Shown here piece after piece: positions 1 to 21,238 of a stretch of 64,000 nt of DNA (the stretch's first letter is position 1; every line of letters starts with the position of its first letter). The position numbers were made by a program, and so were the translations under genes. Source of the DNA: an uncultured Gammaproteobacteria bacterium. GTDB lineage: Bacteria > Patescibacteriota > Patescibacteriia > Magasanikbacterales > GWA2-37-8. The notes under the pieces were generated by a model. It worked only from the letters and a program-made list of their open reading frames with translations. It was not told the DNA's origin and did no database searches. The stretch lies in contig CAYTPE010000001.1 of the NCBI GenBank assembly GCA_964439885.1, forward strand, positions 9,031 through 73,030. The letters are read 5' to 3'.

Positions 1-35
1 TTGGAGTCGAACTGCTCGAAGAGAGTATCGCCCAG

Positions 36-461
36 ATGAAGGCAAAGCCCTGCGACTTTCTAGCTGTACCCGAAGGCATTGCCTGCGGCGGAGCGGAATT
101 TTGTTTTAGTGTGGAGGCGCTCAACAAAGTATGTGATATGAAAGATACGAGCGACACCGAAATGATGTGGGTATACTTTACCAAGACCGGAAAATTTAAC
201 GTCCGCGATCAAGACATTCCCGACCGACGTTACTATTCAAACACGGTTCGCATGACGCTCGATTATATCGAAGACTTTAATTTTTTCGCGCGGGTATTTG
301 ACGAGTTTAACACCGATACGAACACTATTCCACTGCTCGACATCATGGCACTGCTCGAAAAGAAACCAGAAATCGCCGCTATTAACTATTTCCGTCAGCA
401 AGAATTTTTAGATAATCAAAAACGCAAAACCAAAATTGTGTTAAAATCTAACCCTGTTTAA
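36..461 (+). CDS. hypothetical protein, possibly 5'-truncated at the window edge
   Basis: 141-aa ORF from the six-frame track. The reading frame stays open back to nt 3, so the true start may lie upstream of the window. No recognisable motifs. Confidence 0.4.
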   Translation: MKAKPCDFLAVPEGIACGGAEFCFSVEALNKVCDMKDTSDTEMMWVYFTKTGKFNVRDQDIPDRRYYSNTVRMTLDYIEDFNFFARVFDEFNTDTNTIPLLDIMALLEKKPEIAAINYFRQQEFLDNQKRKTKIVLKSNPV

Positions 462-462
462 T

Positions 463-1713
463 ATGTCCAATCAAAGTCGCAAATGGCGCTATAGCGGTAA
501 CGAGTTGCAATATGTACAGGAAGTGCTGGATTCCGGATTTGCCGCCGCAACCAGCGGAAACAAAAATAAACAATTCGAAGACATGTTTGCCGAGCGCTTG
601 GGTGTAAAGTACGCGATTACACTTAATTCAGGTACGTCGACTCTCCACACCGCTCTCGCGGCTTTTGGTGTTGGTATGGGGGATGAAGTGATCATCCCTG
701 CCCTCACGGTAGTGATGTGCGCGTACGCTGTTTTTTATGCTAACGCCACTCCGGTTTTTGCCGATGTTGACCCGAATACTTTTCTGATCGATCCGGCCGA
801 TATTGAACGCAAAATTACCCCACGTACCAAAGCAATCATGCCGGTGCATCTGTATGGCCAGGTATGCGACATGGACGCGATTATGGCCATTGCCAAAAAA
901 CATAATCTTAAAGTAATAGAAGACAGTGCCGAATGTATGCTCGGTCTCGATAGTCACGGTCGTATCGGTGGCACCATTGGGGACGCCGGTAGTTTCTCGT
1001 TTGAAAATTCCAAACACTTAGCGGTAGGTGATGGTGGTATGCTTGTTACCAATGATGAAGCACTCGCCGAAAAAATGCGTAAATTTGCTGGTATGGGCTT
1101 TAAAAATATCAAAGCGAGCACTGGGCAAGTGCGCAAGAATAAAGACACCTTTCAAAATCCGGCGTACTTGCGCCACGATGCAGTGGGTTGGAATTATCGC
1201 ATGACCGAAGTGGCAGCCGCGGTTGGTATTGGTCAACTCGAACGCATCAACGAATTGGTGGGTCGTCGTAAAGATGTGGGCAATCGCTTAGTACAAGTTA
1301 TTAAAGATGCTCAGTGCGATTGGCTTGCGTATCAACACACACCAGCTGGTTACGAAAATTCTTACTGGACGCTGGCGGTGCGATACGACGGGCAAGAAAA
1401 AATCGGTGTTTCATGGGAAGATTTTCGTAAGAAATTTATGGAGTTTGGTGGTGATGGTATTTATTCGGCTTGGGCACTAGTCTACAACGAGCCCGCAGTG
1501 CAGATGGTAAGTAAGGAAGGAAAATTTTTTACAGATCTACCCGCCCGAGCTGAATTTTTGAAAGGCATATGCGATAATGTGCAGTGCCCCAAAGCAGATG
1601 TATTGCAGCCAAAAATGATGCACTTCCCAACTAATCAGGGCAGCGAAGAAGAGATTGTTGGGCAGGAAAAAGCTCTCAAAGAAACAATTAGCTTCTTTAG
1701 TCGCGCTGTATGA
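463..1713 (+). CDS. DegT/DnrJ/EryC1/StrS-family PLP-dependent sugar aminotransferase
   Basis: 416-aa ORF. Family-typical motifs are NSGTSTLHTALAAFG...DEVIIPALTVV and the PLP-lysine context GDAGSFSFENSKHLAVGDGGML. It ends with TGA, overlapping the next ATG (ATGA). Confidence 0.85.
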   Translation: MSNQSRKWRYSGNELQYVQEVLDSGFAAATSGNKNKQFEDMFAERLGVKYAITLNSGTSTLHTALAAFGVGMGDEVIIPALTVVMCAYAVFYANATPVFADVDPNTFLIDPADIERKITPRTKAIMPVHLYGQVCDMDAIMAIAKKHNLKVIEDSAECMLGLDSHGRIGGTIGDAGSFSFENSKHLAVGDGGMLVTNDEALAEKMRKFAGMGFKNIKASTGQVRKNKDTFQNPAYLRHDAVGWNYRMTEVAAAVGIGQLERINELVGRRKDVGNRLVQVIKDAQCDWLAYQHTPAGYENSYWTLAVRYDGQEKIGVSWEDFRKKFMEFGGDGIYSAWALVYNEPAVQMVSKEGKFFTDLPARAEFLKGICDNVQCPKADVLQPKMMHFPTNQGSEEEIVGQEKALKETISFFSRAV

Positions 1714-2513
1714 AGCAAACATTTTTCGATTTAACCAAAAAAGTAGTCCTCCTTACCGGAGGGCTTGGTTTTTTGGGAAAACATTTTGCGCGCTATTTGG
1801 TTACCTATGGTGCCACCGTGCTTATTCTTGACGTGCCAGATTACAAAACAGCAAAAACAATAATGCAGACATTTTTTACCCCGGCCGAAAAAAAACGCAT
1901 TACCTATTTTCAGGCGGATATAACGAACAAAGCTGAGTTGGTAACGCTTCACAAAATTATTATCAAGCGTTACAAAAAAATTGATGTATTAATAAACAAT
2001 GCGGCTCTGAACCCGGCGGTGCGAAAAAATCAAGCGCCCGAAGACGATAGTTTTGAGAATTTTAATTTGGATAAATGGCAGAAAATGTTTGATGTTAACG
2101 TGACTGGCACCATGTTGTGCTGCCAAGTTTTTGGCTCCGCCATGCACCCTGGTGGCTCCATTATTAATCTTGCTTCCCTATATGGAATTCAGGCGCCGGA
2201 TCAACGAATTTATAAAAAAGGTTTTACCAAACCGGTGTCGTATTCAGTCACTAAAGGCGGCGTTGTTATGCTCACGCGTTATTTGGCGGCCTACTGGGGT
2301 CCAAAAGGAATCCGCGTGAATAGTTTATCGCCGGGTGGTATTGAAGCGGATCAAGATAAGGATTTTGTCGAAAAATTTTCTTTTAGAACTCCACTAGGCA
2401 GAATGGGCAAGGTGGAGGAGCTTGGGGGGATGCTTGTCTACTTAGCGTCCGACAGTTCATCGTATACCACCGGTGCCAATATGATTATTGATGGGGGTAT
2501 TACAGTTTGGTAA
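1710..2513 (+). CDS. short-chain dehydrogenase/reductase (SDR) family oxidoreductase
   Basis: 267 aa. N-terminal TGGLGFLGKHFARYL (TGxxxGxG Rossmann) and the catalytic YxxxK in SYSVTKGGVVMLTRYLA. Confidence 0.8.
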   Translation: MKQTFFDLTKKVVLLTGGLGFLGKHFARYLVTYGATVLILDVPDYKTAKTIMQTFFTPAEKKRITYFQADITNKAELVTLHKIIIKRYKKIDVLINNAALNPAVRKNQAPEDDSFENFNLDKWQKMFDVNVTGTMLCCQVFGSAMHPGGSIINLASLYGIQAPDQRIYKKGFTKPVSYSVTKGGVVMLTRYLAAYWGPKGIRVNSLSPGGIEADQDKDFVEKFSFRTPLGRMGKVEELGGMLVYLASDSSSYTTGANMIIDGGITVW

Positions 2514-2536
2514 CCCTCTACTAATATTTATTCAAT

Positions 2537-4780
2537 ATGGTCATCGACCGCGCTCTCGACCCACTTATTATCAAAGAGTACGAAAGTATCAAAACCGCTC
2601 TGGTGAAGATTGATAAAAATCAACAGCAGGTTATTTTGGTTGTTTCCGAAGAAGGAGTGCTTTTGGGCATTGCCACCGATGGCGATATTCGCCGCTGGCT
2701 TATTAAACAGCCTGAAGTTGATTTGAACAAACCGATCAAGAGCGTCATGAAAGTTGATTTTATAAGCGTGCACGAGCAAACTGATACCGCTCGGGTTGAG
2801 CAGTTTTTTTCCAATGAAATTAAATTCATTCCTCTGCTTGACGACATGGGAAGACTGGTGGGAATAGCGCGGCCGTCATCAGACACATTTTTGATGGGTA
2901 ATCGTAAGATCGGTGTTGGTCAACCCGCCTTTATAATCGCGGAAATTGGAAATAATCATAATGGCAGCATCGAGCTTGCCAAGAAGCTTGTGGATCTGGC
3001 AGCCGAAGCTGGGGCTGATTGTGTTAAATTCCAAATGCGCGATCTCGGTTCACTCTACTCCAACCGCGGTAAAGCAGGCGATAAACGAGAAGATCTTGGT
3101 TCGCAGTATACATTGGATTTGCTCAATAAGTTCAATTTAACCCCCGAACAAATGTTTGAGGTGTTCGACTATTGTAAGAGTCGAAATATTTTGGCCTTCT
3201 GCACGCCGTGGGATTTGCAAAGTTTAGAGCACCTCAAACGTTATGGCATGCCCGGCTTCAAAATTGCTTCCGCCGACCTTACGAATCATGAACTGCTCAC
3301 CGCCGCGGCCAAAATCGGCAAACCACTCATCTGTTCGTCCGGCATGACCACCGAGAGCGAAATTCGAGCGGCAGTAAAAGTGCTCAGTGGCACCGGCGTG
3401 CCGTTTGCATTGTTACACTGCAATTCCACCTACCCAGCACCATTTAGCGATATCAATTTACGCTACATGCCCATGCTCAAAGAGATTGCCCACTGTCCGG
3501 TGGGGTATTCAGGGCATGAGCGCGGTATTAATGTCGCTGTCGCCGCCGTTGCGCTCGGCGCCAATATTATTGAGAAACATTTTACCATCGATCGAGCCAT
3601 GGAAGGCAATGATCATCGCGTTAGCCTTTTACCGGATGAATTCAAAAAGATGGTCGAAGGCATCCGCGAAGTAGAGCTTGCGCTCGGGAGTGGACAGAAA
3701 ACCGTACTCTCTCAGGGTGAGCTTATGAATCGTGAGGTGCTCGGTAAAAGCGTGGTTGTATCAAGAGCCGTATCCAAGGGCACCACTTTTACTCCCGACA
3801 TGCTCGATATAAAAAGCCCGGGCAAGGGTCTGCCCGCTTATCGAAAGGGTGATGTGATCGGCAAAATAGCGAATCGCGACTTTGCTCCTGGCGATTTTAT
3901 TTTTCCAAGCGATCTGAGCGAAGGTGGTACGAGCGAAACCACTTTTCGTTTTAAGCGTCGATGGGGTATTCCGGTTCGCTACCATGATTTTAAACAAATG
4001 CTCACGAAGGCTAATCCGGAATTGATTGAATTTCACTTAAGTTACAAAGATATCGAAGAAGACGCGCATCAGTTTTTCGACAAACCACTGAATATGCACT
4101 ACGTGGTGCATGCGCCCGAACTGTTTGCCGGCGACCATATTTTGGATCTTGCGTCGAGTGACGAATCGTACCGCCAGGCTTCGATTGCGAACATGCAACG
4201 AATAGTCGATATTACCCGCAGCCTCAAAACATATTTTACTACCGAACGACCCCTTATTGTCGCAAATGTGGGAGGCTTTACGGCCGATAAAAATATGCCA
4301 GTTGCCGAAAGAGCCGAGCGTTACAAACGAGTGGCCGAAAGTCTTCGTAAAGTTGATTCTGCGGGAGTGGAGATTATACCGCAGACTATGCCACCATTCC
4401 CATGGCATTTTGGTGGGCAGCGCTTCCATAATTTATTTGTCGACCCTGATGAGATTGTGGAATTTTGTAAAACATATGGTTATCGCGTGTGCCTTGATAT
4501 CGCGCACTCCAAACTCGCCTGCAACCACTATAAATGGTCATTCCGAGAATTTGTGGAAAAGGTCGGTCCCTACACCGCCCATTATCATATTTCAGACGCT
4601 CTTGGCGCCGATGGCGAAGGGCTGCAGATACACGATGGCGAAATTGATTTTAAAGCATTGTCCGATATTATGAATCACGTTTCCCCAGAGGCTTCCTTTA
4701 TTCCCGAAATTTGGCAAGGTCATAAAGACAGTGGAAGCGGCTTTTGGACCGCGCTTTCGCGTCTGCAAAAATGGTTTTAA
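2537..4780 (+). CDS. multidomain nonulosonic-acid (NeuB-like) synthase: CBS pair + NeuB sialic-acid-synthase domain + SAF domain + C-terminal xylose-isomerase-like TIM barrel
   Basis: 747 aa. CBS-like segments (VILVVSEEGVLLGIATDGDIRRWL), NeuB signature GVGQPAFIIAEIGNNHNGSIELAKKLVDLAAEAGADCVKFQ, a SAF-like segment (TFTPDMLDIKSPGKGLPAY...GDVIGKIA), then about 280 aa resembling a sugar-phosphate isomerase/epimerase TIM barrel (IEFHLSY...MHYVVHAPELFAGDHILDLAS). Confidence 0.75.
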   Translation: MVIDRALDPLIIKEYESIKTALVKIDKNQQQVILVVSEEGVLLGIATDGDIRRWLIKQPEVDLNKPIKSVMKVDFISVHEQTDTARVEQFFSNEIKFIPLLDDMGRLVGIARPSSDTFLMGNRKIGVGQPAFIIAEIGNNHNGSIELAKKLVDLAAEAGADCVKFQMRDLGSLYSNRGKAGDKREDLGSQYTLDLLNKFNLTPEQMFEVFDYCKSRNILAFCTPWDLQSLEHLKRYGMPGFKIASADLTNHELLTAAAKIGKPLICSSGMTTESEIRAAVKVLSGTGVPFALLHCNSTYPAPFSDINLRYMPMLKEIAHCPVGYSGHERGINVAVAAVALGANIIEKHFTIDRAMEGNDHRVSLLPDEFKKMVEGIREVELALGSGQKTVLSQGELMNREVLGKSVVVSRAVSKGTTFTPDMLDIKSPGKGLPAYRKGDVIGKIANRDFAPGDFIFPSDLSEGGTSETTFRFKRRWGIPVRYHDFKQMLTKANPELIEFHLSYKDIEEDAHQFFDKPLNMHYVVHAPELFAGDHILDLASSDESYRQASIANMQRIVDITRSLKTYFTTERPLIVANVGGFTADKNMPVAERAERYKRVAESLRKVDSAGVEIIPQTMPPFPWHFGGQRFHNLFVDPDEIVEFCKTYGYRVCLDIAHSKLACNHYKWSFREFVEKVGPYTAHYHISDALGADGEGLQIHDGEIDFKALSDIMNHVSPEASFIPEIWQGHKDSGSGFWTALSRLQKWF

Positions 4781-4783
4781 CCT

Positions 4784-5638
4784 ATGGTACAGTGCTACTT
4801 GTGTCACAATAAAAAATTAGTTTTGAGAAACGATTCCACGCGCGATCGACCGGAAATAAAGGTTCTCCATTGCCCGGCGTGCGATCTCACGTTTCTTGCT
4901 TCGTTCAAACATTTGAACGATTTTTCGTATAACGACAGTAAGCACAACTACGATAAACCAATACCGAGCAAGGAGGCTTATACCATGTTACTCAAGGAGC
5001 TGTCCGGTGACGATCTCAGACGTGTTGAGCAACACAAAAAAATGATCACCGGCAAGCGCTTGTTGGATTTTGGGTGTGGCGCTGGTGGGTTTTTACTACA
5101 AGCTAAAAAGCATGCCAAAGAAGCATACGGCGTCGAGATTGATTCAATTACGCGGTTCTATAATAAAAAAGTCTCGGTAAAAAAATCCATCGAGGAATTC
5201 AACATGCAATTTGACGTTATCACACTCTTCCATGTTATCGAACATATACCGGATCCGATTGCACTACTCACCATGTTAAAAAAATTTCTTCGTCCCGGCG
5301 GTACCATTATTATCGAAGTGCCGAACGATCATGATGCGCTTATCTCGTATTACCAATTGCCTGCCTTTAAGAATTTTACCTATTGGAGCCTACATCTGTT
5401 TTCGTTTTCGCCCCAAAGCATTACCAGGCTTTTCCGCAACGCTGGGTATAAGCGCAGTCAGGTAACCTTTTTTCAGCGCTACTCATTTGCCAATCACATT
5501 GGGTGGCTTAAAGACGGCAAACCAGGTGGGCAGAACCGCTATCCAGAGATGGATACCCAAAAATTGAACGCCGCGTATGTCGCGCATTTGAAAAAAAACG
5601 GTCTGTGCGACACGCTGATTGCTTATTTAAAAAAGTAG
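4784..5638 (+). CDS. class I SAM-dependent methyltransferase with N-terminal C4 zinc ribbon
   Basis: 284 aa. N-terminal CYLCHNKK...CPACDL zinc ribbon, then methyltransferase motif I LLDFGCGAGGFLLQ...YGVEID. This architecture is typical of methyltransferases in sugar-modification clusters. Confidence 0.75.
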   Translation: MVQCYLCHNKKLVLRNDSTRDRPEIKVLHCPACDLTFLASFKHLNDFSYNDSKHNYDKPIPSKEAYTMLLKELSGDDLRRVEQHKKMITGKRLLDFGCGAGGFLLQAKKHAKEAYGVEIDSITRFYNKKVSVKKSIEEFNMQFDVITLFHVIEHIPDPIALLTMLKKFLRPGGTIIIEVPNDHDALISYYQLPAFKNFTYWSLHLFSFSPQSITRLFRNAGYKRSQVTFFQRYSFANHIGWLKDGKPGGQNRYPEMDTQKLNAAYVAHLKKNGLCDTLIAYLKK

Positions 5639-5641
5639 TGT

Positions 5642-7042
5642 ATGAAAGTACTTTATATTGGCGGTGGCTTTGTGGGAGCCTGTAGCGCCGCAGTTTCTGC
5701 CGACAGTGGCCACGAGACGATGGTATACGATATCGACCAACACAAAACAGCCTTGCTTTCGTCGGGCGATCGGACGCGCATTGAATCATGTCTTTTTGAA
5801 AAAGGATTGGGAGATTTACTGGTGCGTAACGCCGACCGAATTACTTTTACCAGTGACTATGCTGATGTGGAAGCTTTTTTAGATACCTGTGAGGTTGTAT
5901 TCATGTGTGTGCCCACTCCCGAAATCGATGAGACGGGCGAAAGTGACCTGTCGTATTATAATGCAGCCACGGAAAAACTTTCTACTTGTTTAGTAAAGCG
6001 CAACAGTGGCTCTCAAAGCAATTACATTGTCGTCGTTAATAAGAGTACCGTTCCTATTGATACGGTGAGCCGAACCGAGCAGATGCTGGCTGAGCGTGGT
6101 GTCAAAAATGTGGGCGTGGTTTCTAACCCGGAATTTTTGGTTGAGGGCAAAGCCGTGCAAGATTCCCTCAAACCGGATCGGATAGTGGTCGGCGCGCGCA
6201 CTGAGCGTGACTTTGAGGTTATGCGCCGTTTGTATCAGCGGTTTTACGATTCTCCCACGGTGCAATATTTACAAGTAAGCCCGGAAGAAGGTGCCGCCAG
6301 TAAATTGTTAGCAAATTATTATCTCTTCAATCGCTTGGCTGTTTGTTTCGATGTGATTGGCAGAACCTGTGAAGCTTTTCCTGGCCTAAAATTCGAAAAT
6401 ATTCGTCGCGTGCTTACCACCGATAAAAGAATCGGCGAGTGGGGTTTTTACGATAGTCTGTATGCCGGTGGAAGCTGTTTTATCAAAGATACTCGCTCGC
6501 TTGCGCACCAACTGCAGTCCGTTGGCTATGATGCGCCGCTCGTACGCGAAACACATGCCGCCAATCGTCGCCAACTGATGTCCTTTTTGAATCGCGCCGA
6601 GCGCGAGGCGCAGTACCAGTGGGTGGGAAAAAAGGTGGCGCTCCTCGGCGTTGCTTTTAAACGAGACACTAACGATGTCCGCAATTCACCAAGCAGTGAT
6701 ATCGTCCGCTTTCTCCATGATAAAAAAGTGGGGAACATTACCGTGTACGATCCGGCAGCGATGGATACTTTTAAAAAAACGATTTCCGCGGATTTAACAC
6801 TTCACTACGCACAAAATGAAAGTGAGGCTATACACGACGCCGATGTCATTATCGTGGCTACCGATTGGCCACAATTTCGTGGTGTCGCCGACCAGCTGGT
6901 AATGCAAATGAATAGCACACATACGAATAAGCCTGAGTTGATTATGGATTGTCGCCGCATGTTCCAACATCGCTATGACGATTTGCAAAAAAGCGGCTGC
7001 GCTATTATCGCGGTTGGTTCGCCGCTTATCTCACCTCAATAA
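5642..7042 (+). CDS. nucleotide-sugar dehydrogenase (UDP-glucose/GDP-mannose dehydrogenase family)
   Basis: 466 aa. N-terminal NAD-binding segment MKVLYIGGGFVGACSAA and the catalytic-cysteine motif GGSCFIKD. Confidence 0.8.
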   Translation: MKVLYIGGGFVGACSAAVSADSGHETMVYDIDQHKTALLSSGDRTRIESCLFEKGLGDLLVRNADRITFTSDYADVEAFLDTCEVVFMCVPTPEIDETGESDLSYYNAATEKLSTCLVKRNSGSQSNYIVVVNKSTVPIDTVSRTEQMLAERGVKNVGVVSNPEFLVEGKAVQDSLKPDRIVVGARTERDFEVMRRLYQRFYDSPTVQYLQVSPEEGAASKLLANYYLFNRLAVCFDVIGRTCEAFPGLKFENIRRVLTTDKRIGEWGFYDSLYAGGSCFIKDTRSLAHQLQSVGYDAPLVRETHAANRRQLMSFLNRAEREAQYQWVGKKVALLGVAFKRDTNDVRNSPSSDIVRFLHDKKVGNITVYDPAAMDTFKKTISADLTLHYAQNESEAIHDADVIIVATDWPQFRGVADQLVMQMNSTHTNKPELIMDCRRMFQHRYDDLQKSGCAIIAVGSPLISPQ

Positions 7043-7046
7043 TTGT

Positions 7047-8378
7047 ATGGTTTCTTTTGCAGAATTACAATCCAAACGTCAGTCAATCGTGGTTGTCGGG
7101 CTGGGATATGTCGGGCTGCCTCTCGCCATCGCACTTGCCAGACATTTCAAGGTGATTGGTTTTGATGTTAAAGAAAATAGGATTACCGAACTTCAAGCGC
7201 ACTACGACCGAACGAGAGAAGTCACTGCTGACGATCTAATGAGCAGCACAATGGAGTTTGTGAGCGATCCGGTTGAGGTACGGAAAAAGCTGTGCGGTGA
7301 GTCGGCGTTTATTATTGTGGCGGTACCAACTCCTGTAAACCAAAAAAACGAACCAGATCTTACACTTGTAGAAAAAGCGTCAGCGATGGTAGGAAAAGAT
7401 TTTCTTTCCCCCGGCAGCGTGGTAGTGTATGAATCCACTGTCTACCCGGGAGTCACCGAAGACATCTGCATTCCAATTCTTGAAGAAAAATCACAAACTA
7501 AACGTGGTATTGATTTTAAGGTCGGTTATTCGCCGGAGCGTATTAACCCGGGCGATCACGAGCACACTATCAACAAAGTCACTAAAATCGTTTCCGGCAT
7601 GGATGCTGAATCCCTCGACGTAATTGCCGCGGTGTATGGGAGTATTACCACTGTTTTTAAAGCCTCATCCATCAAAGTAGCCGAAGCGGCCAAGGTTATC
7701 GAAAATACCCAGCGCGATATCAATATTGCCCTGATGAATGAACTGGCAGTTATCTTTAGCAAGATGGGCATTTCCACGTACGATGTTCTGGCGGCCGCCG
7801 GTACCAAATGGAATTTTCTCAAATTTACACCTGGCCTCGTTGGGGGCCACTGTATCGGGGTGGATCCGTATTACCTCACACACCGCGCCGAGCAGCTCGG
7901 CTACACGCCAGAAGTCATTTTGTCGGGACGCAAAATCAATGATGGAATGGGGGAGTGGATCGTGGAGCAGGTAGTGCAGCGAAGTAAAAAGCTGGGTAAA
8001 GATATTACCAAGTGTAATGTACTTGTTTGCGGCATGACATTTAAAGAAAACGTCCCCGATGTACGCAATTCCAAAGTATGGGATATTATCCAAGCGCTTA
8101 AAAAGCGTGGCGCCCAGCCTACCGTGTATGATCCGATTGCCTATAAAGACGAAGTCGAGTATGAATATGATTTTAAGCTTGCCGAAACGGAGGCGCTTTC
8201 CCGTGGTAAAAATTATGACATTATTATAGTAGCAGTAGCCCACCGGGAATTTGTGAATATGACGTCAGAAGCTTGGCAAAAAATAGCGTCTTCGAACCAA
8301 CCAATGGTTGTTGATGTAAAAGGAGTTCTAAATAAAGCCGAACTTGAACGAGTTGGATTTTCTTATTGGACTTTATAA
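7047..8378 (+). CDS. nucleotide-sugar dehydrogenase (UDP-N-acetyl-mannosamine/glucosamine dehydrogenase-like)
   Basis: The ORF track starts at 6975, but an in-frame ATG at 7047 follows the upstream stop at 7042. IVVVGLGYVGLPLAIALA Rossmann segment and the catalytic-Cys motif LVGGHCIGVDPYYL. Confidence 0.8.
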   Translation: MVSFAELQSKRQSIVVVGLGYVGLPLAIALARHFKVIGFDVKENRITELQAHYDRTREVTADDLMSSTMEFVSDPVEVRKKLCGESAFIIVAVPTPVNQKNEPDLTLVEKASAMVGKDFLSPGSVVVYESTVYPGVTEDICIPILEEKSQTKRGIDFKVGYSPERINPGDHEHTINKVTKIVSGMDAESLDVIAAVYGSITTVFKASSIKVAEAAKVIENTQRDINIALMNELAVIFSKMGISTYDVLAAAGTKWNFLKFTPGLVGGHCIGVDPYYLTHRAEQLGYTPEVILSGRKINDGMGEWIVEQVVQRSKKLGKDITKCNVLVCGMTFKENVPDVRNSKVWDIIQALKKRGAQPTVYDPIAYKDEVEYEYDFKLAETEALSRGKNYDIIIVAVAHREFVNMTSEAWQKIASSNQPMVVDVKGVLNKAELERVGFSYWTL

Positions 8379-8418
8379 TCTTCTAATCTTTCAGTCTTTT
8401 AGTCTTCAGTCTTTCACT

Positions 8419-9333
8419 ATGTCTCATTATCTCGTCACTGGCGGTGCTGGCTTCATCGGTACTAACCTCGTTAAACGCTTGCTCGCCGATGGTCATACCG
8501 TAAAAGTCTATGACAATTACGCTGCCGGGAAAAAACCGGAGCGTATACAAAGTGGCGCCGAGTATATCGAAGGCGACATTCGTGATCTGGAAAGTCTGAA
8601 AAAAGCGTGTGCGGGCGTGGATGGCATTTTTCACTTAGCGGCGCTGCCGCGAGTTCTTTTCTCCGTCGAAAATCCGCTGCTCACACACGACGTGAACGTG
8701 AACGGCACACTCAATGTGCTTCTTGCCGCCCGTGATATGAAAGTGAAGCGTGTTGTTTTTTCCACTTCGTCGGCCGCGTATGGCGACCAGACGGTATATC
8801 CGCTTCCAGAAGATACGGTGATCAAGAAACCGGTCAGCCCGTACGGCTTCCATAAACTGGTTGGCGAAGAATATTGCCGACTATTCAGTCTGTTGTATGG
8901 AGTTGAAACCGTATCGCTCTGTTACTTCAATATTTACGGTCCCTATTTTGACCCCGAAGGCGCATACGCGCTCGTAATCGGTCGATTCCTCAAGCTCCGC
9001 AGCGAAGGTAAGCCCATGACCGTGCGTGGTGATGGTGAAATGTATCGCGACTATACGCACGTATTCGACGCGGTTGAAGCGAATATACTTGCTATGACAA
9101 AAGAGACGGTGGGCAAGGGCGAGGTGCTTAATATCGGCTACGGCGAACCGCATTCCGTAAACGAACTGGTGCAACTCATCGGTGGGGCAGCCGAATATGT
9201 TCCGGCTCTTCCTGGTGAAATGAAATTTACTCACGCTGATAACAGCAAGGCGCGTCGATTGCTTGGGTGGCAGCCCACCATCGCGCTTGCGGACGGTATT
9301 GCTATGCTCAAAAAAGAATGGGGATTAGAGTAG
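8419..9333 (+). CDS. NAD-dependent epimerase/dehydratase (UDP-sugar 4-epimerase-like)
   Basis: Start taken at the internal ATG 8419 (MSHYLVTGGAGFIGTNLVKRL), 40 nt after the upstream stop. GxxGxxG Rossmann motif and YxxxK (PYGFHKLVGE). Confidence 0.8.
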   Translation: MSHYLVTGGAGFIGTNLVKRLLADGHTVKVYDNYAAGKKPERIQSGAEYIEGDIRDLESLKKACAGVDGIFHLAALPRVLFSVENPLLTHDVNVNGTLNVLLAARDMKVKRVVFSTSSAAYGDQTVYPLPEDTVIKKPVSPYGFHKLVGEEYCRLFSLLYGVETVSLCYFNIYGPYFDPEGAYALVIGRFLKLRSEGKPMTVRGDGEMYRDYTHVFDAVEANILAMTKETVGKGEVLNIGYGEPHSVNELVQLIGGAAEYVPALPGEMKFTHADNSKARRLLGWQPTIALADGIAMLKKEWGLE

Positions 9334-9379: not shown

Positions 9380-9416
9380 AAAAAACCCGGCTTTTCAAGC
9401 CGGGTTTAATTTTTTC
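9380..9416. terminator. bidirectional rho-independent terminator between the convergent epimerase and rpmA genes
   Basis: AAAAAACCCGGCTTTTCAAGCCGGGTTTAATTTTTT: a GC stem with an A-tract on one side and a T-tract on the other. Confidence 0.55.
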
Positions 9417-9833: not shown

Positions 9834-9866
9834 CTTGGCTGTTGATGATAAAATTAAGCCATATTT

Positions 9867-10226: not shown

Positions 10227-11333
10227 ATGTCTGCAATTGCGCGTCCAGCTGACCGTATTTTTTTGAGCTATGTTGGTCTTTTGGTGGTGTTTGGATTGTT
10301 TGCTCTGATGTCGGCTAGCGGGCCTGTGGGTTTTGCTAAATTCGGCGATACCTATTTTTTTGTTAAACGACAAATACTGTTTGGCATTATACCGGGCCTG
10401 ATTTGTTTTGTAGCTCTCGCGAAGATTGATGTGCAGCTGTGGAAGCGGTTCGCTTGGTGGTTGTATGGGCTCACGTTAGGTTTGCTCGTGCTTGGTTTTA
10501 TTCCACATGTCGGTTCGGTAATCAACAATTCACATGGTTGGCTTAACCTCTTCGGCTTCAGTTTTCAGCCGTCGGAGCTGGCTAAAGTAAGTATTATCAT
10601 TTTAATGGCCACACTGCTCACGGAAAAAAAACGAGATTGGGACGACTGGCGTACTGGTCTCATGCCAGTGCTCGGTGCGGTAGCCCCGGCGCTCCTACTC
10701 ATTCTGGCGCAGCCCGATGTGGGAACGGCGTCAATTATTGTGGCAATCATTTTTGCTATGCTCTATGTGGCACGTCTACCGAATGTGTACCTGTTTATTC
10801 TGGGTGGGGTAGGGATAATCTGTTTTGCTCTGCTGATTATCATTGCGCCGTATCGGGCGCAGCGTATTACGGTATTTTTGCATCCCGAAGCTGACCCAAC
10901 CACCATTGGGTATCAGATCAATCAAGCCTTCCTCGCGGTCGGTTCAGGAGGTCTGTGGGGGTTGGGGTATGGCCACTCTCGTCAAAAATTTCAGTATCTA
11001 CCCGAAGTGAGCGCCGACTCTATCTACGCTGTTATTGCCGAAGAAAATGGGTTCATTATTTCCGCTGGTCTTATTATCCTTATCCTGCTACTCGTAGCGA
11101 GGGGCTTACGTATTGCCAAAAATAATCCAGACGAGTATAGTTGCCTTATTGTGAGTGGTATTATGGTGTGGTTTGTGTGCCAATCCTTTCTCAATATCGG
11201 CGCGATGGTGGGGGCACTGCCGCTCACCGGGGTACCACTGCTCTTTATTAGCCACGGCGGCTCAGCTATGATGACGGCTTTGGCGGCAGTTGGCCTCGTG
11301 GCGAATGTGAGTAAAAAGGCGAGGTTGGAGTAA
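10227..11333 (+). CDS. FtsW/RodA/SpoVE (SEDS) family peptidoglycan glycosyltransferase
   Basis: 368 aa, polytopic. SEDS-typical segments include GSVINNSHGWLNLFGFSFQPSELAK, DVGTASIIVAI and a C-terminal PLTGVPLLFISHGGSAMM. Confidence 0.85.
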   Translation: MSAIARPADRIFLSYVGLLVVFGLFALMSASGPVGFAKFGDTYFFVKRQILFGIIPGLICFVALAKIDVQLWKRFAWWLYGLTLGLLVLGFIPHVGSVINNSHGWLNLFGFSFQPSELAKVSIIILMATLLTEKKRDWDDWRTGLMPVLGAVAPALLLILAQPDVGTASIIVAIIFAMLYVARLPNVYLFILGGVGIICFALLIIIAPYRAQRITVFLHPEADPTTIGYQINQAFLAVGSGGLWGLGYGHSRQKFQYLPEVSADSIYAVIAEENGFIISAGLIILILLLVARGLRIAKNNPDEYSCLIVSGIMVWFVCQSFLNIGAMVGALPLTGVPLLFISHGGSAMMTALAAVGLVANVSKKARLE

Positions 11334-15577: not shown

Positions 15578-17713
15578 ATGCAACCAATCGCCATACATGA
15601 GCCAAAAAACGGTTACCGCGTCGCCATTCTCGGCCATCGAGGCATTCCGAGCACCTATGGCGGCTTTGAGACCTTTGCCGAAAAGATTACCGAGGCATTG
15701 GTTGGTTTGGGTTGCAAAGTAGCTGTGTATTGCCGCAAAAATTACTTCAAAGAGCGCCCGGCAGAATACAAAGGGGCACGTTTGGTGTACCTGTCCACGG
15801 TTACCAACAAAATGCTCGACACGTTTGTGCATACCTTCATCAGTGTCTTGCATGTAATCTTTAAGAACACGGCCGATACCATCATCGTGGTAAATGTAGG
15901 CAACGCGCCATTTGCGCTGCTTGCTAAACTGTTTGGTAAGAAAGTTATTTTCTGTGTAGACGGACTTGATTGGGAGCGCAAAAAATGGGGTGCATTTGCC
16001 AAATGGTATCTGCGCACTTGTTCGTATTTCGCCAAATGGGCAGCGCATGAAGTAGTGACCGATGCCGGCAGTGTGCAAGAATTTTATCTCAAAGAGCGCG
16101 GCACCAAGAGCCACATGATTCCCTATGGCACCGACATTGAATCCGGCAATTCGGACCCGAACGTACTCAAAGAAATCGGGGTCGAATCCAAAAAATACTT
16201 CATCTACGTGGCTCGCTTCGAACCGGAGAATAATCCGCTCATGGTGGTGAAGGCGCATGTGGCGTCGGGCAGCACGTTGCCCCTGGTGATGATCGGCGAC
16301 AACCGCTACAACCAAGCGTTTGTGGATGAAATTAAACGCGCCGCGAACGACAAAGTTATCTTCCTCGGTTATGTCTTTGGTACTACGTACAAAACATTAC
16401 TGCGTGAATCTCTCGCGTATATTCGCGCGGCGGAAGTCGGCGGTATTTCTCCAGCCGTGATCGAAGCCATGGGCCGCGGCGTGTGCGTTATCGCCAACGA
16501 CAAGCCAGAGAATCGCGAGCCACTCGCGGAAAGCGGTGTCTTTTACCAATTGAATGAAGCATCGCTCACTGAAGCCATCACCACTCTTACCGCTCACCCG
16601 GAGAAAGCGATCGAACTCGGCAAAAAAGCCGCTCAACGTGCGATGATTGTGTACAGTTGGGACACGATTGGTTTTGAATACTTTAAACTCATCAAACACA
16701 ACATGCACAGCGTGCGCGCAAACAATCAAGAGATTGATACACTGACACCAGCGAACGCGAATGCCGGTAAAAAGAAGATTTTGCTAACTGGTGCGGGCGG
16801 TATGCTCGGACGAGCCATGTACGAACACTATGCTCGCACGTATAACGTGCTTGCTACTAATCGAACCGCCTACGAAAGTTGGATGCGTCCGCTCGACGTT
16901 ACCAATTATGCCGAATACGAAAAAATGGTGGCTGAATTTAAACCCGACTATATTTTTCATCTGGCAGCCATGACGAACTTGGAAGAATGTGAGAAACATT
17001 TGGCCGATGCCTACACGCTTAACACGTTGTCGGTAAAACACGCCGCCCAACTCTCCACGAAATACGGAGCAAAATTGGTGTATGTGAGCACCAGCGGTGT
17101 GTTCGACGGCCATCAGACCTTTTACACCGAACGCGACGAAGCACACCCCACTACCGTCTACGGCCTCACGAAACAGATGGGCGCGCTCATGGTAGAGTAC
17201 TACGCTACCGATTGGCTCATTGTACGTCCGTCGTGGCTGATGGGTGGTGGCGCGCATCATGATAAGAAATTCGTGGGTAAAGTGATCGAGCAGATCGTAT
17301 CCGGTAAACGCGAACTGTTCGCTTTGAACGATACATTCGGCACGCTGACCTACGCTCTCGACGTGGCTATAACCCTCGAAAAATTACTCGCGCGTAATGC
17401 GACGGGGCTCTACAACATGGCTGGTATTGGTCGCGCCAGTCGTTACGATATCGCTCGCGAAATAGTGCATATCTTAGGCTATCAGCGTGAAATTATCGTG
17501 AACGCGGTAGACAATACCTTCTTCAAAACGACGTATACGACACCACGCGTCGCTTCCGAATGTTTGGTGAACGAACGATTGAATCAAGAGTCAGCCAACA
17601 CCATGCGCCCATGGCAGGTAGCGTTGCGCGATTATCTGGAGCGAGACTACGCGCACGCGTTCAACCATACTACAGCTTCAGAGCACAGTGGTTTGGTAGT
17701 CAAACCAGCTTAA
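15578..17713 (+). CDS. fusion protein: family-4 (GT-B) glycosyltransferase + RmlD-like NAD(P)-dependent sugar reductase/epimerase domain
   Basis: 711 aa. The N-terminal ~390 aa carry the GT4-type EAMGRGVCVIANDKPENREPL (E-x7-E). From about aa 398, KKILLTGAGGMLGRAMYEHYA...YIFHLAAMTN...VYVSTSGVF resembles the RmlD/NAD-epimerase family. Confidence 0.75.
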   Translation: MQPIAIHEPKNGYRVAILGHRGIPSTYGGFETFAEKITEALVGLGCKVAVYCRKNYFKERPAEYKGARLVYLSTVTNKMLDTFVHTFISVLHVIFKNTADTIIVVNVGNAPFALLAKLFGKKVIFCVDGLDWERKKWGAFAKWYLRTCSYFAKWAAHEVVTDAGSVQEFYLKERGTKSHMIPYGTDIESGNSDPNVLKEIGVESKKYFIYVARFEPENNPLMVVKAHVASGSTLPLVMIGDNRYNQAFVDEIKRAANDKVIFLGYVFGTTYKTLLRESLAYIRAAEVGGISPAVIEAMGRGVCVIANDKPENREPLAESGVFYQLNEASLTEAITTLTAHPEKAIELGKKAAQRAMIVYSWDTIGFEYFKLIKHNMHSVRANNQEIDTLTPANANAGKKKILLTGAGGMLGRAMYEHYARTYNVLATNRTAYESWMRPLDVTNYAEYEKMVAEFKPDYIFHLAAMTNLEECEKHLADAYTLNTLSVKHAAQLSTKYGAKLVYVSTSGVFDGHQTFYTERDEAHPTTVYGLTKQMGALMVEYYATDWLIVRPSWLMGGGAHHDKKFVGKVIEQIVSGKRELFALNDTFGTLTYALDVAITLEKLLARNATGLYNMAGIGRASRYDIAREIVHILGYQREIIVNAVDNTFFKTTYTTPRVASECLVNERLNQESANTMRPWQVALRDYLERDYAHAFNHTTASEHSGLVVKPA

Positions 17714-17796
17714 CACAATGTATATTACTTACTTTCACAGACACCCACCAGGGTGTCTTTGACGTGTCGAATTATTTTCGCTACTATAGGTGCACT

Positions 17797-18540
17797 ATGA
17801 TTACTATTACTACCACCATCCATGACCCCGATGCTGGGCTTAAGTGGCTCAGCGAACTGCACGTTGCGTCACTTCTGAAGGTATGCGACTCGCTTATCGT
17901 GGTCGCCACGCCAGCTACCAACCCTCAGTACCTTGACCGACTTACTGCGCAGGGGTGCACTGTATTTCGAGCTAGCAAAAATATTCCTGGCCGCGTGTAC
18001 TACGAAGCGGTACGCCGAGGATATGAGACCGGCGCCGAACGTATCATGTACTGTGATTTTGATCGACTCTTGCATTGGGTTCACACATTTCCGGACGACC
18101 TCAAACGGATGCCGCGCCGTTTGAGTGGCGATATGACATTTGTGGAAAGATTGCCCGAAGACTATAAGGCACATCATGAAGCCCTGTACGAAACCGAGCA
18201 GCTTGCTAACAAAGTACTTTCGTATCGACTTGGTAAAAAAGAATGTCACGACCACCTCAGCGGATGTTTTCTCCTCTCACGTCGCGCCGCGAAAATTGTC
18301 GTGCGCTACCCAACAGACGGGTATCAATTTTATGGATGGTGGCCTATGAAAGTGCGCGCGGCAAAACTCAAAGTATCGTACCGCTCAAGCCCCGGCCTTG
18401 CCTGGGAAACGCCGGATCGGTTTCAGAAGGAAATTGCCAAAGCCGGAGGACTCGCACCGTGGCGCGAACAGCTTTCGTCCAAAGAAGAATGGAAGAAGCG
18501 CGTTATCATGGCGCGTGAATTTGTGGAAAAATGTTTGTAA
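17797..18540 (+). CDS. hypothetical protein (possible nucleotide-sugar-transferase-like fold)
   Basis: Start taken at the internal ATG 17797, after the upstream stop. 247 aa with a DxD-like CDFDR. No confident family assignment. Confidence 0.45.
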   Translation: MITITTTIHDPDAGLKWLSELHVASLLKVCDSLIVVATPATNPQYLDRLTAQGCTVFRASKNIPGRVYYEAVRRGYETGAERIMYCDFDRLLHWVHTFPDDLKRMPRRLSGDMTFVERLPEDYKAHHEALYETEQLANKVLSYRLGKKECHDHLSGCFLLSRRAAKIVVRYPTDGYQFYGWWPMKVRAAKLKVSYRSSPGLAWETPDRFQKEIAKAGGLAPWREQLSSKEEWKKRVIMAREFVEKCL

Positions 18541-20794: not shown

Positions 20795-21238
20795 ATGGAA
20801 AGTAAAAAAATAAAATGGTTGAGATACGTCACACTATTTTTTCTAGGATTCTCTCTATTGTCGGCGGCCACTACCAAGTTTGTTAAATGGACGAGCCTCA
20901 GTGATTATTGGATCGCAGAGGGGCAAGAGTTGGTGTGCGCTACACCGGACATAGTTGCAAGGCAAGAGTCTCCCAAGACGCAATATATAGCCGGCTGGAC
21001 ATCGATCAAATGTCCCACCTCATCGTGGTATCTACCGCTGTCGTTGAGTACGTTTATACTGTGTGCGCTATCACTTTTTTTGGCGTACATATACTTGGTA
21101 TTGAGAATATACCAGCGTTTGGTGGCTACTCAAAAGACATGGATACGTGTGATATATGATACGTTTATGATCTGCTTGTTCCCTGTAGTCATGATAATGT
21201 TTTCAATTTTTTCTTTCATCTATTATTTTAGTGGTTGA
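20795..21238 (+). CDS. hypothetical membrane protein
   Basis: 147 aa, 3-4 transmembrane segments, embedded in the glycosyltransferase cluster. Confidence 0.45.
   Translation: MESKKIKWLRYVTLFFLGFSLLSAATTKFVKWTSLSDYWIAEGQELVCATPDIVARQESPKTQYIAGWTSIKCPTSSWYLPLSLSTFILCALSLFLAYIYLVLRIYQRLVATQKTWIRVIYDTFMICLFPVVMIMFSIFSFIYYFSG

Follow-up and report, generated by a model that had tools for sequence, protein, structure and literature searches.

The gene at positions 2537..4780 on the forward strand of the window, as the 64,000-nucleotide stretch of DNA analysed here is termed, encodes a 747 aa fusion protein built, in this order, of a CBS pair, a NeuB domain, a SAF domain and a TIM barrel with the xylose-isomerase fold (Table 1). 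The product is proposed to be one regulated bifunctional enzyme that would make a free 2-keto-3-deoxy nine-carbon sugar acid (nonulosonate). In the preferred reading, which is given a probability of about 35%, the barrel would be a metal phosphoesterase freeing the aldose from its nucleotide or phosphate handle for the NeuB domain; sugar isomerisation is probably not its role. The window protein is a divergent representative of an already catalogued family and is encoded in an ordinary surface-polysaccharide operon. The family has been known since 2012, from Leptospira, and is functionally uncharacterised.

Table 1. Features of the fusion gene and its operon in the window.
Feature	Positions	Strand	Details
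CTP_transf_3 (SpsF/KdsB-like) cytidylyltransferase, C-terminal 152 residues	3..461	+	gene cut by window start
DegT/DnrJ/EryC1 PLP aminotransferase (LegC/PseC-like)	463..1713	+	Pfam E 1.4e-91
Classical short-chain dehydrogenase (PRK09186 / gluconate-5-dehydrogenase-like)	1710..2513	+	Pfam adh_short_C2 E 1.9e-49
CBS pair (Bateman module)	2537..2875	+	residues 1-113; Pfam CBS, two stretches
NeuB catalytic barrel	2909..3700	+	residues about 125-388; Pfam NeuB E 1.3e-86
SAF (antifreeze-like) domain	3749..3916	+	residues 405-460; Pfam SAF E 1.5e-10
Xylose-isomerase-fold TIM barrel	3962..4777	+	residues 476-747
SAM methyltransferase (Methyltransf_23)	4784..5638	+	Pfam E 2.1e-27; 3 bp past fusion stop
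UDP-glucose dehydrogenase-like, TviB-like UDP-GlcNAc 6-dehydrogenase and TviC/GalE-like 4-epimerase	5642..9333	+	distal genes, same operon
Terminator-like hairpin	9383..9407		11-bp stem, T runs on both strands

The original prediction of a single polypeptide was borne out: the gene is one unbroken open reading frame, stop codon included, and its relatives are colinear with it at 100% coverage, which rules out a frameshift or two separate genes. The four domain calls were confirmed by Pfam profile matches, as was the location of the gene among those for a DegT aminotransferase, a short-chain dehydrogenase (SDR), a methyltransferase and sugar dehydrogenases. The NeuB domain scores 290 bits against a PF03102 gathering threshold of 22 and the SAF domain 41.9 bits against 21 for PF08666; the C-terminal domain scores above the threshold of PF01261 and has an eight-stranded barrel fold. 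The predicted model of the whole protein has a pTM of 0.51, so its interdomain geometry is unusable for judging domain packing.

A search for the same architecture in other genomes found full-length relatives in at least 589 species-level genomes of about ten phyla, with 53–64% identity between the window protein and any relative found. The rarity of the fusion that had been implied is contradicted by this number and by the publication of the NeuB–barrel core in 2012. The fusion of Leptospira interrogans (YP_002104 / NP_711794), which shares both protein family and architecture with the window protein, was called a putative synthase-phosphatase by Ricaldi et al. and, in the accessible part of that account, is described as a nonulosonate synthase whose C-terminal domain shows homology to endonucleases that cleave phosphodiesters (PMC3438082). 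The same part mentions no CBS pair and contains no residue analysis or assay (PMC3438082). A full-length relative from Leptospira limi (P0119) is 58% identical to the window protein at 100% coverage and one from L. borgpetersenii (L047) is 54% identical; the cluster of the window fusion, with its SpsF-like cytidylyltransferase, DegT, SDR and methyltransferase genes, nevertheless differs from the cluster type of the Leptospira fusion. A literature search for enzymology of the fusion found none, the 2012 Leptospira account being the only description, although finding none does not prove absence. The barrel subfamily is met only together with NeuB: fused in proteins of about 750 or about 630 aa, in N-truncated fusion fragments, or in an adjacent gene, as at locus L090, where the barrel gene immediately follows a NeuB–SAF gene. 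Other fusion partners, considered as a clue to the step carried out by the barrel, were not obtained from its matches of intermediate length, since, of ten examined, nine proved to be NeuB(-SAF)–barrel proteins truncated at the N-terminus; the N-terminal part of the tenth, P0133, is unassigned. The confinement of the barrel to the company of NeuB counts in favour of the proposed bifunctional enzyme.

The NeuB domain aligns with the NeuB of Neisseria meningitidis (NmNeuB) with an E value of 4e-53. The metal histidines, His327 and His348, are matched, as are K164, Q166, K242, S245, S267, Y299 and D359, whose counterparts in NmNeuB (K53, Q55, K129, S132, S154, Y186 and D247) we take from the 1XUZ structure to be PEP and substrate ligands; all of these residues are invariant in 38 homologues. 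Since the metal and PEP ligands are all intact, the NeuB/SAF part should be competent for condensing PEP with an open-chain aldose, and this competence counts in favour of a nonulosonate synthase role for the fusion. The NeuB/LegI/PseI synthases (N. meningitidis NeuB, 1XUU; Campylobacter jejuni PseI, 8H2C) share with it the NeuB barrel, the SAF domain and the conserved metal and PEP residues; the fusion differs from them in the added CBS and TIM modules, in two substitutions and in NCBIfam scores below the equivalog cut-offs, namely 336.6 against 399.65 bits for N-acetylneuraminate synthase (TIGR03569) and 249.4 against 340.25 bits for pseudaminate synthase (TIGR03586). In NeuB dimers, the SAF domain caps the active site of the partner subunit, and SAF Arg314 of NmNeuB contacts the N-acetyl group of ManNAc. 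In the fusion, Ser427, a residue almost invariant across the family, takes the position of Arg314, and Asp247 that of Glu134. The identity of the NeuB domain to any reference is 33–41%, with 41% to a LegI-like NeuB and 34% to NmNeuB; the 36% to human NANS is a lead only. A special closeness to 9-phosphate synthases was considered on this basis and set aside, the value for NANS being lower than that for the LegI-like NeuB, and the comparison is not decisive.

The N-terminal module contains two tandem CBS motifs (Pfam CBS, within residues about 8–113) and is presumed to be a nucleotide-binding regulator. It carries a TDGDIRRW motif in common with the CBS pairs of PtmE-type CBS-nucleotidyltransferases and KpsF/GutQ, and it matches the CBS region of KpsF/GutQ (E 6e-10). 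A CBS-nucleotidyltransferase encoded in a Leptospira nonulosonate cluster has an N-terminal CBS module to which it is 29% identical (E 3e-12). In KpsF/GutQ and the PtmE-type enzymes, CBS pairs occur in ulosonic-acid pathways as well, but are joined to other catalytic domains than in the fusion. The pair is missing from 31 of 113 near-full-domain family representatives and is therefore dispensable for the core function.

Residues of the barrel conserved across the family include R481, D484, E498, H500, D505, H525, D654, H657, H684, D687, E694, E724, W726 and H729. The trinuclear zinc site of endonuclease IV (Nfo) has nine ligands: H69, H109, E145, D179, H182, H216, D229, H231 and E261. Its first zinc site presumably comprises His69, His109 and Glu145; the residue types at these three positions were confirmed in the sequence. 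Strand-3 His525, which is 100% conserved in the family, aligns to Nfo His69, and among the Escherichia coli references tested (Nfo, YcjR, UlaE and Hyi) only Nfo has this counterpart. D654-x-x-H657 aligns to Nfo D179/H182 and H684 to H216; for Nfo D229/H231 and E261 the alignment is ambiguous. Gln616 on strand 5 aligns to a glutamate in every reference (Glu145 in Nfo, Glu146 in YcjR, Glu155 in UlaE, Glu143 in Hyi), and strand-4 position 577, where hhalign leaves a gap, was set opposite Nfo His109 by hand from strand order. Positions 577 and 616 covary perfectly across the 114 family representatives: His is paired with Glu in 35, and Asn, Ser or Thr with Gln in 79, with no mixed pair. Position 624 is a third covarying site, with the combination H/E/Y in P0002, for example, and the window protein has the triad N577/Q616/H624; its N577 and Q616 are not of ligand type, so that two of the three first-site ligands are gone.

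The ligand layout of the barrel thus appears to resemble that of endonuclease IV more than that of the ketose epimerases, and this layout (H525, D654/H657 and H684, with the 577/616 covariation) counts for the phosphoesterase reading. A weak match to the CbiR phosphodiesterase (E 0.0015) offers a precedent for such an activity within the same superfamily. The barrel does not appear to be a member of endonuclease IV proper, although a related metal centre is possible: R481, E498, H500 and H729, invariant in the fusion family, have no counterpart in Nfo, and the third-site ligands of Nfo are without a clear match in the fusion. The two histidines of the first zinc site of Nfo have been described as separating true endonucleases (endonuclease IV) from a paralogue (PMC2770678). 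Against the phosphoesterase reading stand the NCBIfam endonuclease IV models, none of which matches the barrel, the Asn577 and Gln616 of the window protein, and the profile–profile comparison, in which the barrel is slightly nearer to UlaE (83% probability) and YcjR (77%) than to Nfo (54%).

The neighbourhood of the fusion was surveyed in two censuses, one of 80 genome loci and one of 80 metagenome loci of the CBS-less subtype, 160 in all. A CTP_transf_3 gene lies within 10 kb in 74 of the 80 genome loci, about 50 of which have it immediately next to the fusion in the same orientation, and near the fusion in 60 of the 80 metagenome loci; for a typical partner, PseF gives the highest score. The constant genomic partner of the family is a cytidylyltransferase of the CMP-nonulosonate type, predicted to activate the product. 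NeuC-type hydrolysing epimerases are near the fusion in five and one of the 80 loci, respectively (6/160), and there is no PseG-like cluster among the annotated frequent neighbour clusters. NeuC, LegG and PseG release the free hexose from its nucleotide before condensation, the role proposed here for the barrel; the equivalence is an inferred one, as their folds are unrelated to the barrel and they show no sequence relationship to it. Genomic loci with the fusion hardly ever contain them, and the scarcity of NeuC-type genes and of PseG-like clusters near it argues for the barrel as the hydrolase. Such evidence from gene neighbourhoods is indirect.

A Gmd-like NDP-hexose 4,6-dehydratase gene is located near the fusion in 24 of 80 loci of the subtype with His577/Glu616 (H/E) and immediately adjoins it, in the same orientation, in 20, and some of these loci have a window-like order (SpsF-like cytidylyltransferase, DegT, SDR, Gmd-like, fusion). 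A 6-deoxy NDP-sugar has no site for a 6-phosphate but must still lose its nucleotide, which counts for NDP-sugar hydrolysis; the Gmd-like gene could, on the other side, serve another polymer sugar. A further point against is that most loci of the CBS/N-Q subtype, to which the window belongs, contain no NDP-sugar-modifying gene, so that one of the common NDP-sugars, GDP-mannose for instance, would have to be the precursor there. The modules of the nearest syntenic relatives, L003 and L015, include a kinase of the APH family and a phosphatase of the KdsC family; the phosphatase stands beside the fusion at L003 (TIGR01670, 130 against 107 bits) and is represented by a homologue of it at L015. This pair fits a sequence of free sugar, kinase, synthase and phosphatase that leaves the barrel as supplier of the free sugar.

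At the start of the window, the translation of the truncated gene aligns to the C-terminal half of the 267 aa CTP_transf_3 product of L003, itself placed weakly by NCBIfam with KdsB-type cytidylyltransferases, and is 71% identical to the syntenic L015 gene. It is presumed to be the CMP-activating enzyme of the pathway; a cytidylyltransferase gene, the mark of a CMP-nonulosonate module, is thus encoded together with the synthase in the window. The DegT enzyme is 70% identical to its L015 counterpart and falls below the equivalog cut-offs of both the LegC (229 against 420 bits) and the PseC (223 against 423 bits) families; the start of the SDR gene overlaps the DegT stop, and the best NCBIfam matches of the SDR are all below cut-off. 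The methyltransferase is 54% identical to that of L015 and has homologues near the fusion in 22–25 of the 80 genome loci.

In the proposed mechanism, the SDR and DegT enzymes, encoded upstream, would either convert the hexose to an amino sugar ahead of its release or aminate the acid afterwards. Acting as a divalent-metal phosphoesterase, the barrel would strip the sugar of a phosphate-containing handle at a step adjoining that of NeuB; in the preferred version, it would hydrolyse an NDP-hexose (or a sugar phosphate), the job of NeuC, LegG or PseG in classical pathways, and the free aldose would go straight into the NeuB site. The NeuB domain would condense the open-chain aldose with PEP to a nonulosonate, the cytidylyltransferase would activate this in a CMP-nonulosonate pathway and the downstream methyltransferase would methylate the sugar. 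The most speculative point is that the CBS pair may tune the flux by binding a nucleotide.

It is less likely, though worth weighing, that the NeuB domain uses a hexose 6-phosphate (Man-6-P or ManNAc-6-P), yielding a nonulosonate 9-phosphate from which the barrel, as a non-HAD metal phosphatase, would remove the 9-phosphate; this would be the animal or Bacteroides type of route in one polypeptide. Ricaldi et al. took the domain name as the basis for proposing such a synthase-phosphatase; in the accessible part of their account, they also report no clustering with animal enzymes (PMC3438082), which speaks against it. The phosphoesterase-like ligand layout of the barrel fits it equally well, and its two-gene core of cytidylyltransferase and fusion could start from ubiquitous Man-6-P, a precursor equally suitable for the CBS/N-Q loci. 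The Kdn-9-P pathway of B. thetaiotaomicron and Prymnesium parvum is a precedent, a short route that starts at a central hexose phosphate and runs through a synthase, a phosphatase and a CMP-synthetase (PMC6200933). In the Kdn-9-P and Neu5Ac-9-P routes (animal NANS with NANP, BT1713-1715 of B. thetaiotaomicron, P. parvum), the HAD phosphatase is a separate protein; KdsC-type HAD phosphatases are missing from the window and from 159 of the 160 loci, a gap that a fused phosphatase would fill. As a test of displacement this census is uninformative, HADs being almost always absent in every subtype. The KdsC-family phosphatase beside the fusion in its closest relatives cuts both ways: at L003 it points to a phosphorylated ulosonate in the closest clade, but it would make the barrel redundant wherever it is present (L003, L004 and L015). 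The 20 loci with an immediately adjacent Gmd-like gene also stand against a 9-phosphate, since 6-deoxy precursors carry no 6-phosphate, and the NeuB domain is not specifically near the 9-phosphate synthases.

The original prediction was that the barrel may isomerise or epimerise a sugar. As a sugar(-phosphate) isomerase or 2-epimerase it would convert, for example, Glc-6-P, Fru-6-P or GlcNAc-6-P to a manno-configured open-chain aldose channelled into NeuB; this reading has been weakened and is now rather improbable. The ketose 3-epimerases and sugar-phosphate epimerases (D-tagatose/psicose 3-epimerase, UlaE and YcjR; structures TM0416 and MJ1311) are the best fold and profile matches to the barrel, and the full Glu-Asp-His-Glu tetrad of such epimerases is kept in 35 of 114 representatives. 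In ketose 3-epimerases, the strand-5 Glu binds the metal and also serves as one of two catalytic bases. The window protein retains D654, H684 and E724 of the tetrad but has Gln616 in place of this glutamate, as do 79 of the 114 representatives in all. The invariant strand-3 His525 and the strand-4 His/Asn are, moreover, without counterpart in YcjR and UlaE as aligned, Man-6-P is already available in cells, and in Gmd-like contexts the NDP-sugar would be left uncleaved with no hydrolase in sight. Another chemistry on the sugar or sugar acid (for example dehydration, elimination, multinuclear-iron oxidation or the tailoring of an SDR-made keto intermediate) or a mainly structural role is very improbable: the barrel is invariably linked to NeuB, but only about a fifth of the loci have SDR and DegT genes; DUF692 matches to the barrel are weaker than those of the epimerases and endonuclease IV; and conservation reaches 90% or more at some 25 polar residues of the catalytic face, which speaks against a structural role.

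If the phosphoesterase reading is combined with its wider consequences, the barrel would represent a new endonuclease-IV-like class of sugar phosphoesterases, fused to NeuB and replacing NeuC/LegG/PseG (or the HAD 9-phosphatase). The fusion and its cytidylyltransferase would form the main route, as yet overlooked, by which hundreds of environmental bacteria, most of the sampled cyanobacterial lineages among them, make nonulosonates of the Kdn/Neu type and new deoxy-amino ones, and the SDR, DegT and methyltransferase of the window would lead to an undescribed methylated amino-nonulosonate. This joint proposal is tentative, and the odds are against its holding in full. According to mass-spectrometric surveys, nonulosonic acids of the Kdn/Neu type are about as frequent in environmental prokaryotes as those of the bacterial Pse/Leg types (PMC8157484). 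Genes of the classical NeuC-dependent kind are often missing. The wide distribution of the fusion, nearly always with a cytidylyltransferase, makes it a plausible explanation for Kdn/Neu-type acids where NeuC-dependent genes are lacking. Once settled, the function of the barrel (NDP-sugar hydrolase, 9-phosphatase or epimerase) would give a well-studied fold a new activity and would provide the correct annotation for hundreds of polysaccharide clusters; the covarying 577/616/624 triad is a natural mutagenesis system for the remodelling of a metal site.

In some cyanobacteria, a conserved 379 aa ORF, for which no relative with a solved structure was found, lies downstream of the fusion. In the window, GC content is flat (0.45–0.50), and a foreign island was rejected on composition. 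The window shares synteny with a MAG of an uncultured gammaproteobacterium. The two UDP-sugar dehydrogenases had been grouped with the nonulosonate module, a grouping that is not upheld: together with the 4-epimerase, these TviB/TviC-like enzymes appear to form a supply line of their own for UDP-GlcA and UDP-GalNAcA, and the three distal genes probably provide other sugars of the polymer, outside the nonulosonate module. The hairpin that follows them is the predicted end of the operon.

The gene at 2537..4780 of the window is a single ORF encoding four modules, each matched by Pfam as the original prediction had proposed: a CBS pair, a NeuB synthase domain, a SAF domain and a xylose isomerase-like TIM barrel. 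Among 5.8 billion proteins searched, over 120 clusters with lengths of about 748 residues match the entire query at 56–64% identity and have the same Pfam domains. Because these full-length relatives are colinear and share its domains, the fusion is real, one polypeptide rather than two genes or a frameshift artefact. The C-terminal homology to TIM barrels is confirmed by the AP_endonuc_2 match and by the AlphaFold model of the barrel alone, which has eight strands (pLDDT 86.8). In the model of the whole protein (pLDDT 84.3), the domains are individually confident and the packing between them is unreliable (pTM 0.51). The CBS pair, absent from about a quarter of the family, resembles CBS regions of KpsF/GutQ (E 6e-10) and is 29% identical (E 3e-12) to the CBS module of a PtmE-like CBS-nucleotidyltransferase from a Leptospira nonulosonate cluster, with the TDGDIRRW motif in both; it could plausibly be a nucleotide-binding regulator.

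Features of the window, with the modules of the fusion protein given in residues
Feature	Position	Strand	Remarks
CTP_transf_3 cytidylyltransferase, C-terminal 152 residues	3..461	+	cut by window edge; matches 267-aa product 5' of DegT in closest relative's locus
DegT aminotransferase, LegC/PseC-like	after cytidylyltransferase	+	under cut-offs
Classical SDR	between DegT and fusion	+	
Fusion gene	2537..4780	+	747 codons, ATG start, zero internal stops
CBS pair, two stretches	residues about 8-113		Pfam E 1.8e-10
NeuB	residues 151-388		Pfam E 1.3e-86
SAF	residues 405-460		Pfam E 1.5e-10
AP_endonuc_2 barrel	residues 495-728		Pfam E 7.7e-24
Methyltransf_23 methyltransferase	directly after fusion	+	
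UDP-glucose dehydrogenase-like protein	first of last three operon genes	+	
TviB-like UDP-GlcNAc 6-dehydrogenase	6975..8378	+	second of last three; mechanically called ORF with 68-nt overlap with preceding gene; Pfam match only from residue 37; true start probably near 7080
TviC/GalE-like epimerase	last operon gene	+	
Terminator-like hairpin, strong	9383-9407		after last operon gene
Sigma-70-like promoter match	9832-9804	-	perfect, 12/12; in gap after operon terminator
Sigma-70-like promoter match	9826-9854	+	10/12, extended -10 TG; same gap
FtsW/RodA/SpoVE-family gene, full-length	10227..11333	+	Pfam E 1.3e-91; amid sugar-nucleotide genes; followed by GNAT, 4,6-dehydratase-like SDR, FdtA-like ketoisomerase, RmlD
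ORFs of 317, 326 and 147 aa	14391..15344, 17560..18540, 20795..21238	+	in polysaccharide cluster; no Pfam match at E<=0.01
GT4 glycosyltransferase (DUF1972 + Glycos_transf_1) fused to C-terminal RmlD-like dTDP-4-dehydrorhamnose reductase domain	15578..17713	+	711 aa
Spermidine-synthase-like domain (residues about 287-445) + C-terminal M28 peptidase domain	28129..30528	-	799-aa ORF
GC skew minimum, 4-kb bin	48001..52000		-0.18, against +0.01 to +0.12 elsewhere

The rarity implied at first does not hold, since at least 589 genomes encode a relative when each species is represented by one genome. The same architecture was recovered elsewhere, with near-full-length matches in all 80 loci kept from these genomes; they belong to Cyanobacteria, Alpha-, Beta-, Gamma- and Deltaproteobacteria, Bacillota, Leptospira and other spirochaetes, Actinomycetota, Bacteroidota, Verrucomicrobiota, Nitrospinota, Fibrobacteria and Chloroflexi. 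In databases the family goes by the name 'N-acetylneuraminate synthase family protein', and a literature search found no enzymology of it. The window protein adds a divergent new member to this family, which is widespread, already catalogued and noted before. An exhaustive HMMER search of 1.84 billion representatives with the barrel alone gave 848 matches at E<=1e-3 and 208 at E<=1e-30. Among 113 matches spanning nearly the whole barrel domain, 43 exceed 700 aa (with CBS), 31 have 561–700 aa (without CBS), 23 are of intermediate length and 16 have at most 340 aa. Of ten intermediate matches checked, nine are fragments of NeuB(-SAF)-barrel proteins truncated at the N terminus, and in one relative's locus (L090) a stand-alone barrel gene directly follows a 344-aa NeuB-SAF gene. 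The fused forms, the fragments and this split pair tie the barrel subfamily to NeuB alone.

The NeuB/SAF part aligns with N. meningitidis NeuB (NmNeuB) at E 4e-53. It is expected to be catalytically active, because both metal histidines (His327, His348) and the equivalents of NmNeuB K53, Q55, K129, S132, S154, Y186 and D247 show no variation across 38 homologues. NmNeuB Arg314, the contact to the N-acetyl group, is replaced by Ser427, and Glu134 by Asp247. Identity as a NeuB or PseI equivalog was rejected, both scores being under the cut-off (336.6 against 399.65 bits and 249.4 against 340.25 bits, respectively). By BLASTP, on one common scale, the NeuB part is 41% identical to the LegI-like Leptospira NeuB and to the split NeuB of L090, 36% to human NANS (a lead only), 35% to C. 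jejuni PseI and 34% to NmNeuB. The domain belongs to a distinct clade, and similarity does not reveal the sugar substrate.

In the 80 genome loci, all of the CBS type, unbiased neighbour clustering makes a cytidylyltransferase by far the commonest partner; it lies within 10 kb of the fusion in 74 loci, adjacent and on the same strand in about 50, and typically scores best against PseF (137 bits, cut-off 205). Methyltransferases come next (Methyltransf_23 in 22 loci; TylF-like in 13, nine of them adjacent), with DegT in 18, SDR in 16 and an MptE-like/DUF115 protein in eight (six adjacent). The usual cyanobacterial order is Wzm-Wzt-methyltransferase-cytidylyltransferase-(TylF)-fusion-DUF115-glycosyltransferases; in Crocosphaera and Rippkaea, the fusion gene is solitary. 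NeuC-type hydrolysing epimerases occur in five of these loci and a KdsC-type phosphatase in one. In L003 and L015, the loci closest to the window by synteny (L015 comes from an uncultured gammaproteobacterial MAG), genes for an APH-family kinase and a HAD phosphatase separate DegT from SDR; both are missing from the window; the L003 phosphatase is of the KdsC family (TIGR01670, 130 bits against 107). In several filamentous cyanobacteria (L008, L009, L010; e.g. L009 12253..13392), the next gene 3' of the fusion is a conserved ORF of about 379 aa; no relative was found among solved structures, and its product might transfer the sugar acid. One O-antigen cluster of Leptospira limi (L006, 555..19390) holds four CTP_transf_3 genes, the fusion gene and a complete Leg/Neu-like set that includes a separate 333-aa NeuB, a content implying several different nonulosonates in one organism.

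Among 80 metagenome loci of the CBS-less type with His577/Glu616 in the barrel, a cytidylyltransferase is found in 60, a NeuC-type enzyme in one and a KdsC-type phosphatase in none. A Gmd-like NDP-hexose 4,6-dehydratase gene (210 bits against a cut-off of 415) is near the fusion in 24, adjoining it on the same strand in 20, and is just upstream in the 15 adjacent loci listed. Three of these have the order SpsF-like cytidylyltransferase-DegT-SDR-Gmd-like-fusion (L096 with DegT instead of SDR), which is the order of the window except that a dehydratase gene takes the place of the CBS pair. In nine loci of this subtype, L097, L101 and L120 among them, the cytidylyltransferase is followed by a 319-aa DHDPS/NanA-family class I aldolase-like gene, which thereby stands beside a sugar-acid synthase.

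All models assign the fusion to the condensation step of a CMP-nonulosonate pathway. For the barrel, the tentatively preferred reading (probability about 0.35) is a metal phosphoesterase that would free the aldose from an NDP-sugar or sugar phosphate, the job of NeuC, LegG or PseG in other pathways. It is favoured because these hydrolases are near-universally absent and the barrel is exclusively coupled to NeuB, and because the accessory genes modify NDP-sugars and the L003 kinase and phosphatase fit as 'adapters'; it is the only reading that fits every context seen. What the barrel does matters for the question of how widely Kdn/Neu-type sugars are made among environmental bacteria (PMC8157484). 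Leptospira relatives are 54–58% identical to the window protein over the full length and thus belong to the same family. For the Leptospira fusion, whose C-terminal domain they described as homologous to endonucleases that cleave phosphodiesters, Ricaldi et al. (PMC3438082) proposed, as inference only, an animal-like route from PEP and a phosphorylated hexose, with subsequent dephosphorylation by the fused domain. Such a 9-phosphatase acting on the condensation product is possible, if rather doubtful: it explains why HAD phosphatases are missing and why the site is phosphoesterase-like, but would be redundant wherever a KdsC-type enzyme is present and chemically impossible if the adjoining Gmd-like dehydratase provides a 6-deoxy precursor.

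Among E. coli barrels, hhalign ranks UlaE (83% probability) and YcjR (77%) before Nfo (endonuclease IV, 54%) and Hyi (19%). The NCBIfam matches are weak, to CbiR phosphodiesterase for the window barrel (E 0.0015) and to L-ribulose-5-P 3-epimerase for a stand-alone member (E 7e-6); fold and profile therefore leave the function undecided. In the 114 representatives, R481, D484, E498, H500, D505, H525, D654, H657, H684, D687, E694, E724, W726 and H729 are at least 92% conserved. By strand order and hhalign, strand-3 His525 corresponds to Nfo His69, Asp654 and His657 to Asp179 and His182, and His684 to His216; strand-5 Gln616 takes the place of Nfo Glu145, YcjR Glu146, UlaE Glu155 and Hyi Glu143. 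Strand-4 Asn577 (N-V-G-G against H-P-G-S) lies opposite Nfo His109 by manual placement in an hhalign gap. His69, His109 and Glu145, whose residue types were confirmed in the Nfo sequence, are taken here as the first zinc site of endonuclease IV (Hosfield 1999 structure). The two histidines of this site, His69 and His109, have diagnostic value, setting true endonucleases apart from a paralogue (PMC2770678). The residues of the window protein do not place it in the endonuclease IV family. Positions 577 and 616 covary without exception in the same representatives (His with Glu in 35, Asn/Ser/Thr with Gln in 79, mixed in none), and position 624 follows them in the patterns NQH, SQY and HE(Y/F/L). 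NQH is the pattern in the window protein. The relatives nearest to it (proteins P0002, P0004, P0010 and P0037) have His/Glu at 577/616, P0002 retaining His624. This residue pattern makes a tagatose-epimerase-type two-glutamate mechanism unlikely for the window protein, and the site resembles a multi-histidine metal centre that has been remodelled. The isomerase or epimerase role first suggested for the barrel is therefore not sustained and is now considered unlikely: it agrees with the L003 context and with the closest neighbours by fold and profile, but is at odds with Gln616 and leaves NDP-linked precursors uncleaved. Some other chemistry of the barrel is quite improbable.

The window operon, an ordinary surface-polysaccharide operon, comprises genes from base 3 to 9333, all on the plus strand and tightly packed or overlapping. 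Of the partners named in the original prediction, DegT, SDR and methyltransferase stand as same-strand neighbours; the UDP-sugar dehydrogenases are read as outside the nonulosonate module, the last three genes supplying other uronic sugars. Either before or after the condensation step, SDR and DegT would probably add an amino group; the methyltransferase would probably add a methyl group. The exact product is not predictable. Beyond the operon extends a long polysaccharide region that includes dTDP-sugar genes, glycosyltransferases and a nucleotidyltransferase; the GT4-RmlD protein encoded there is a second unusual fusion. The GC content of the window is flat (0.45–0.50), and the drop in GC skew may mark a block of opposite-strand genes.
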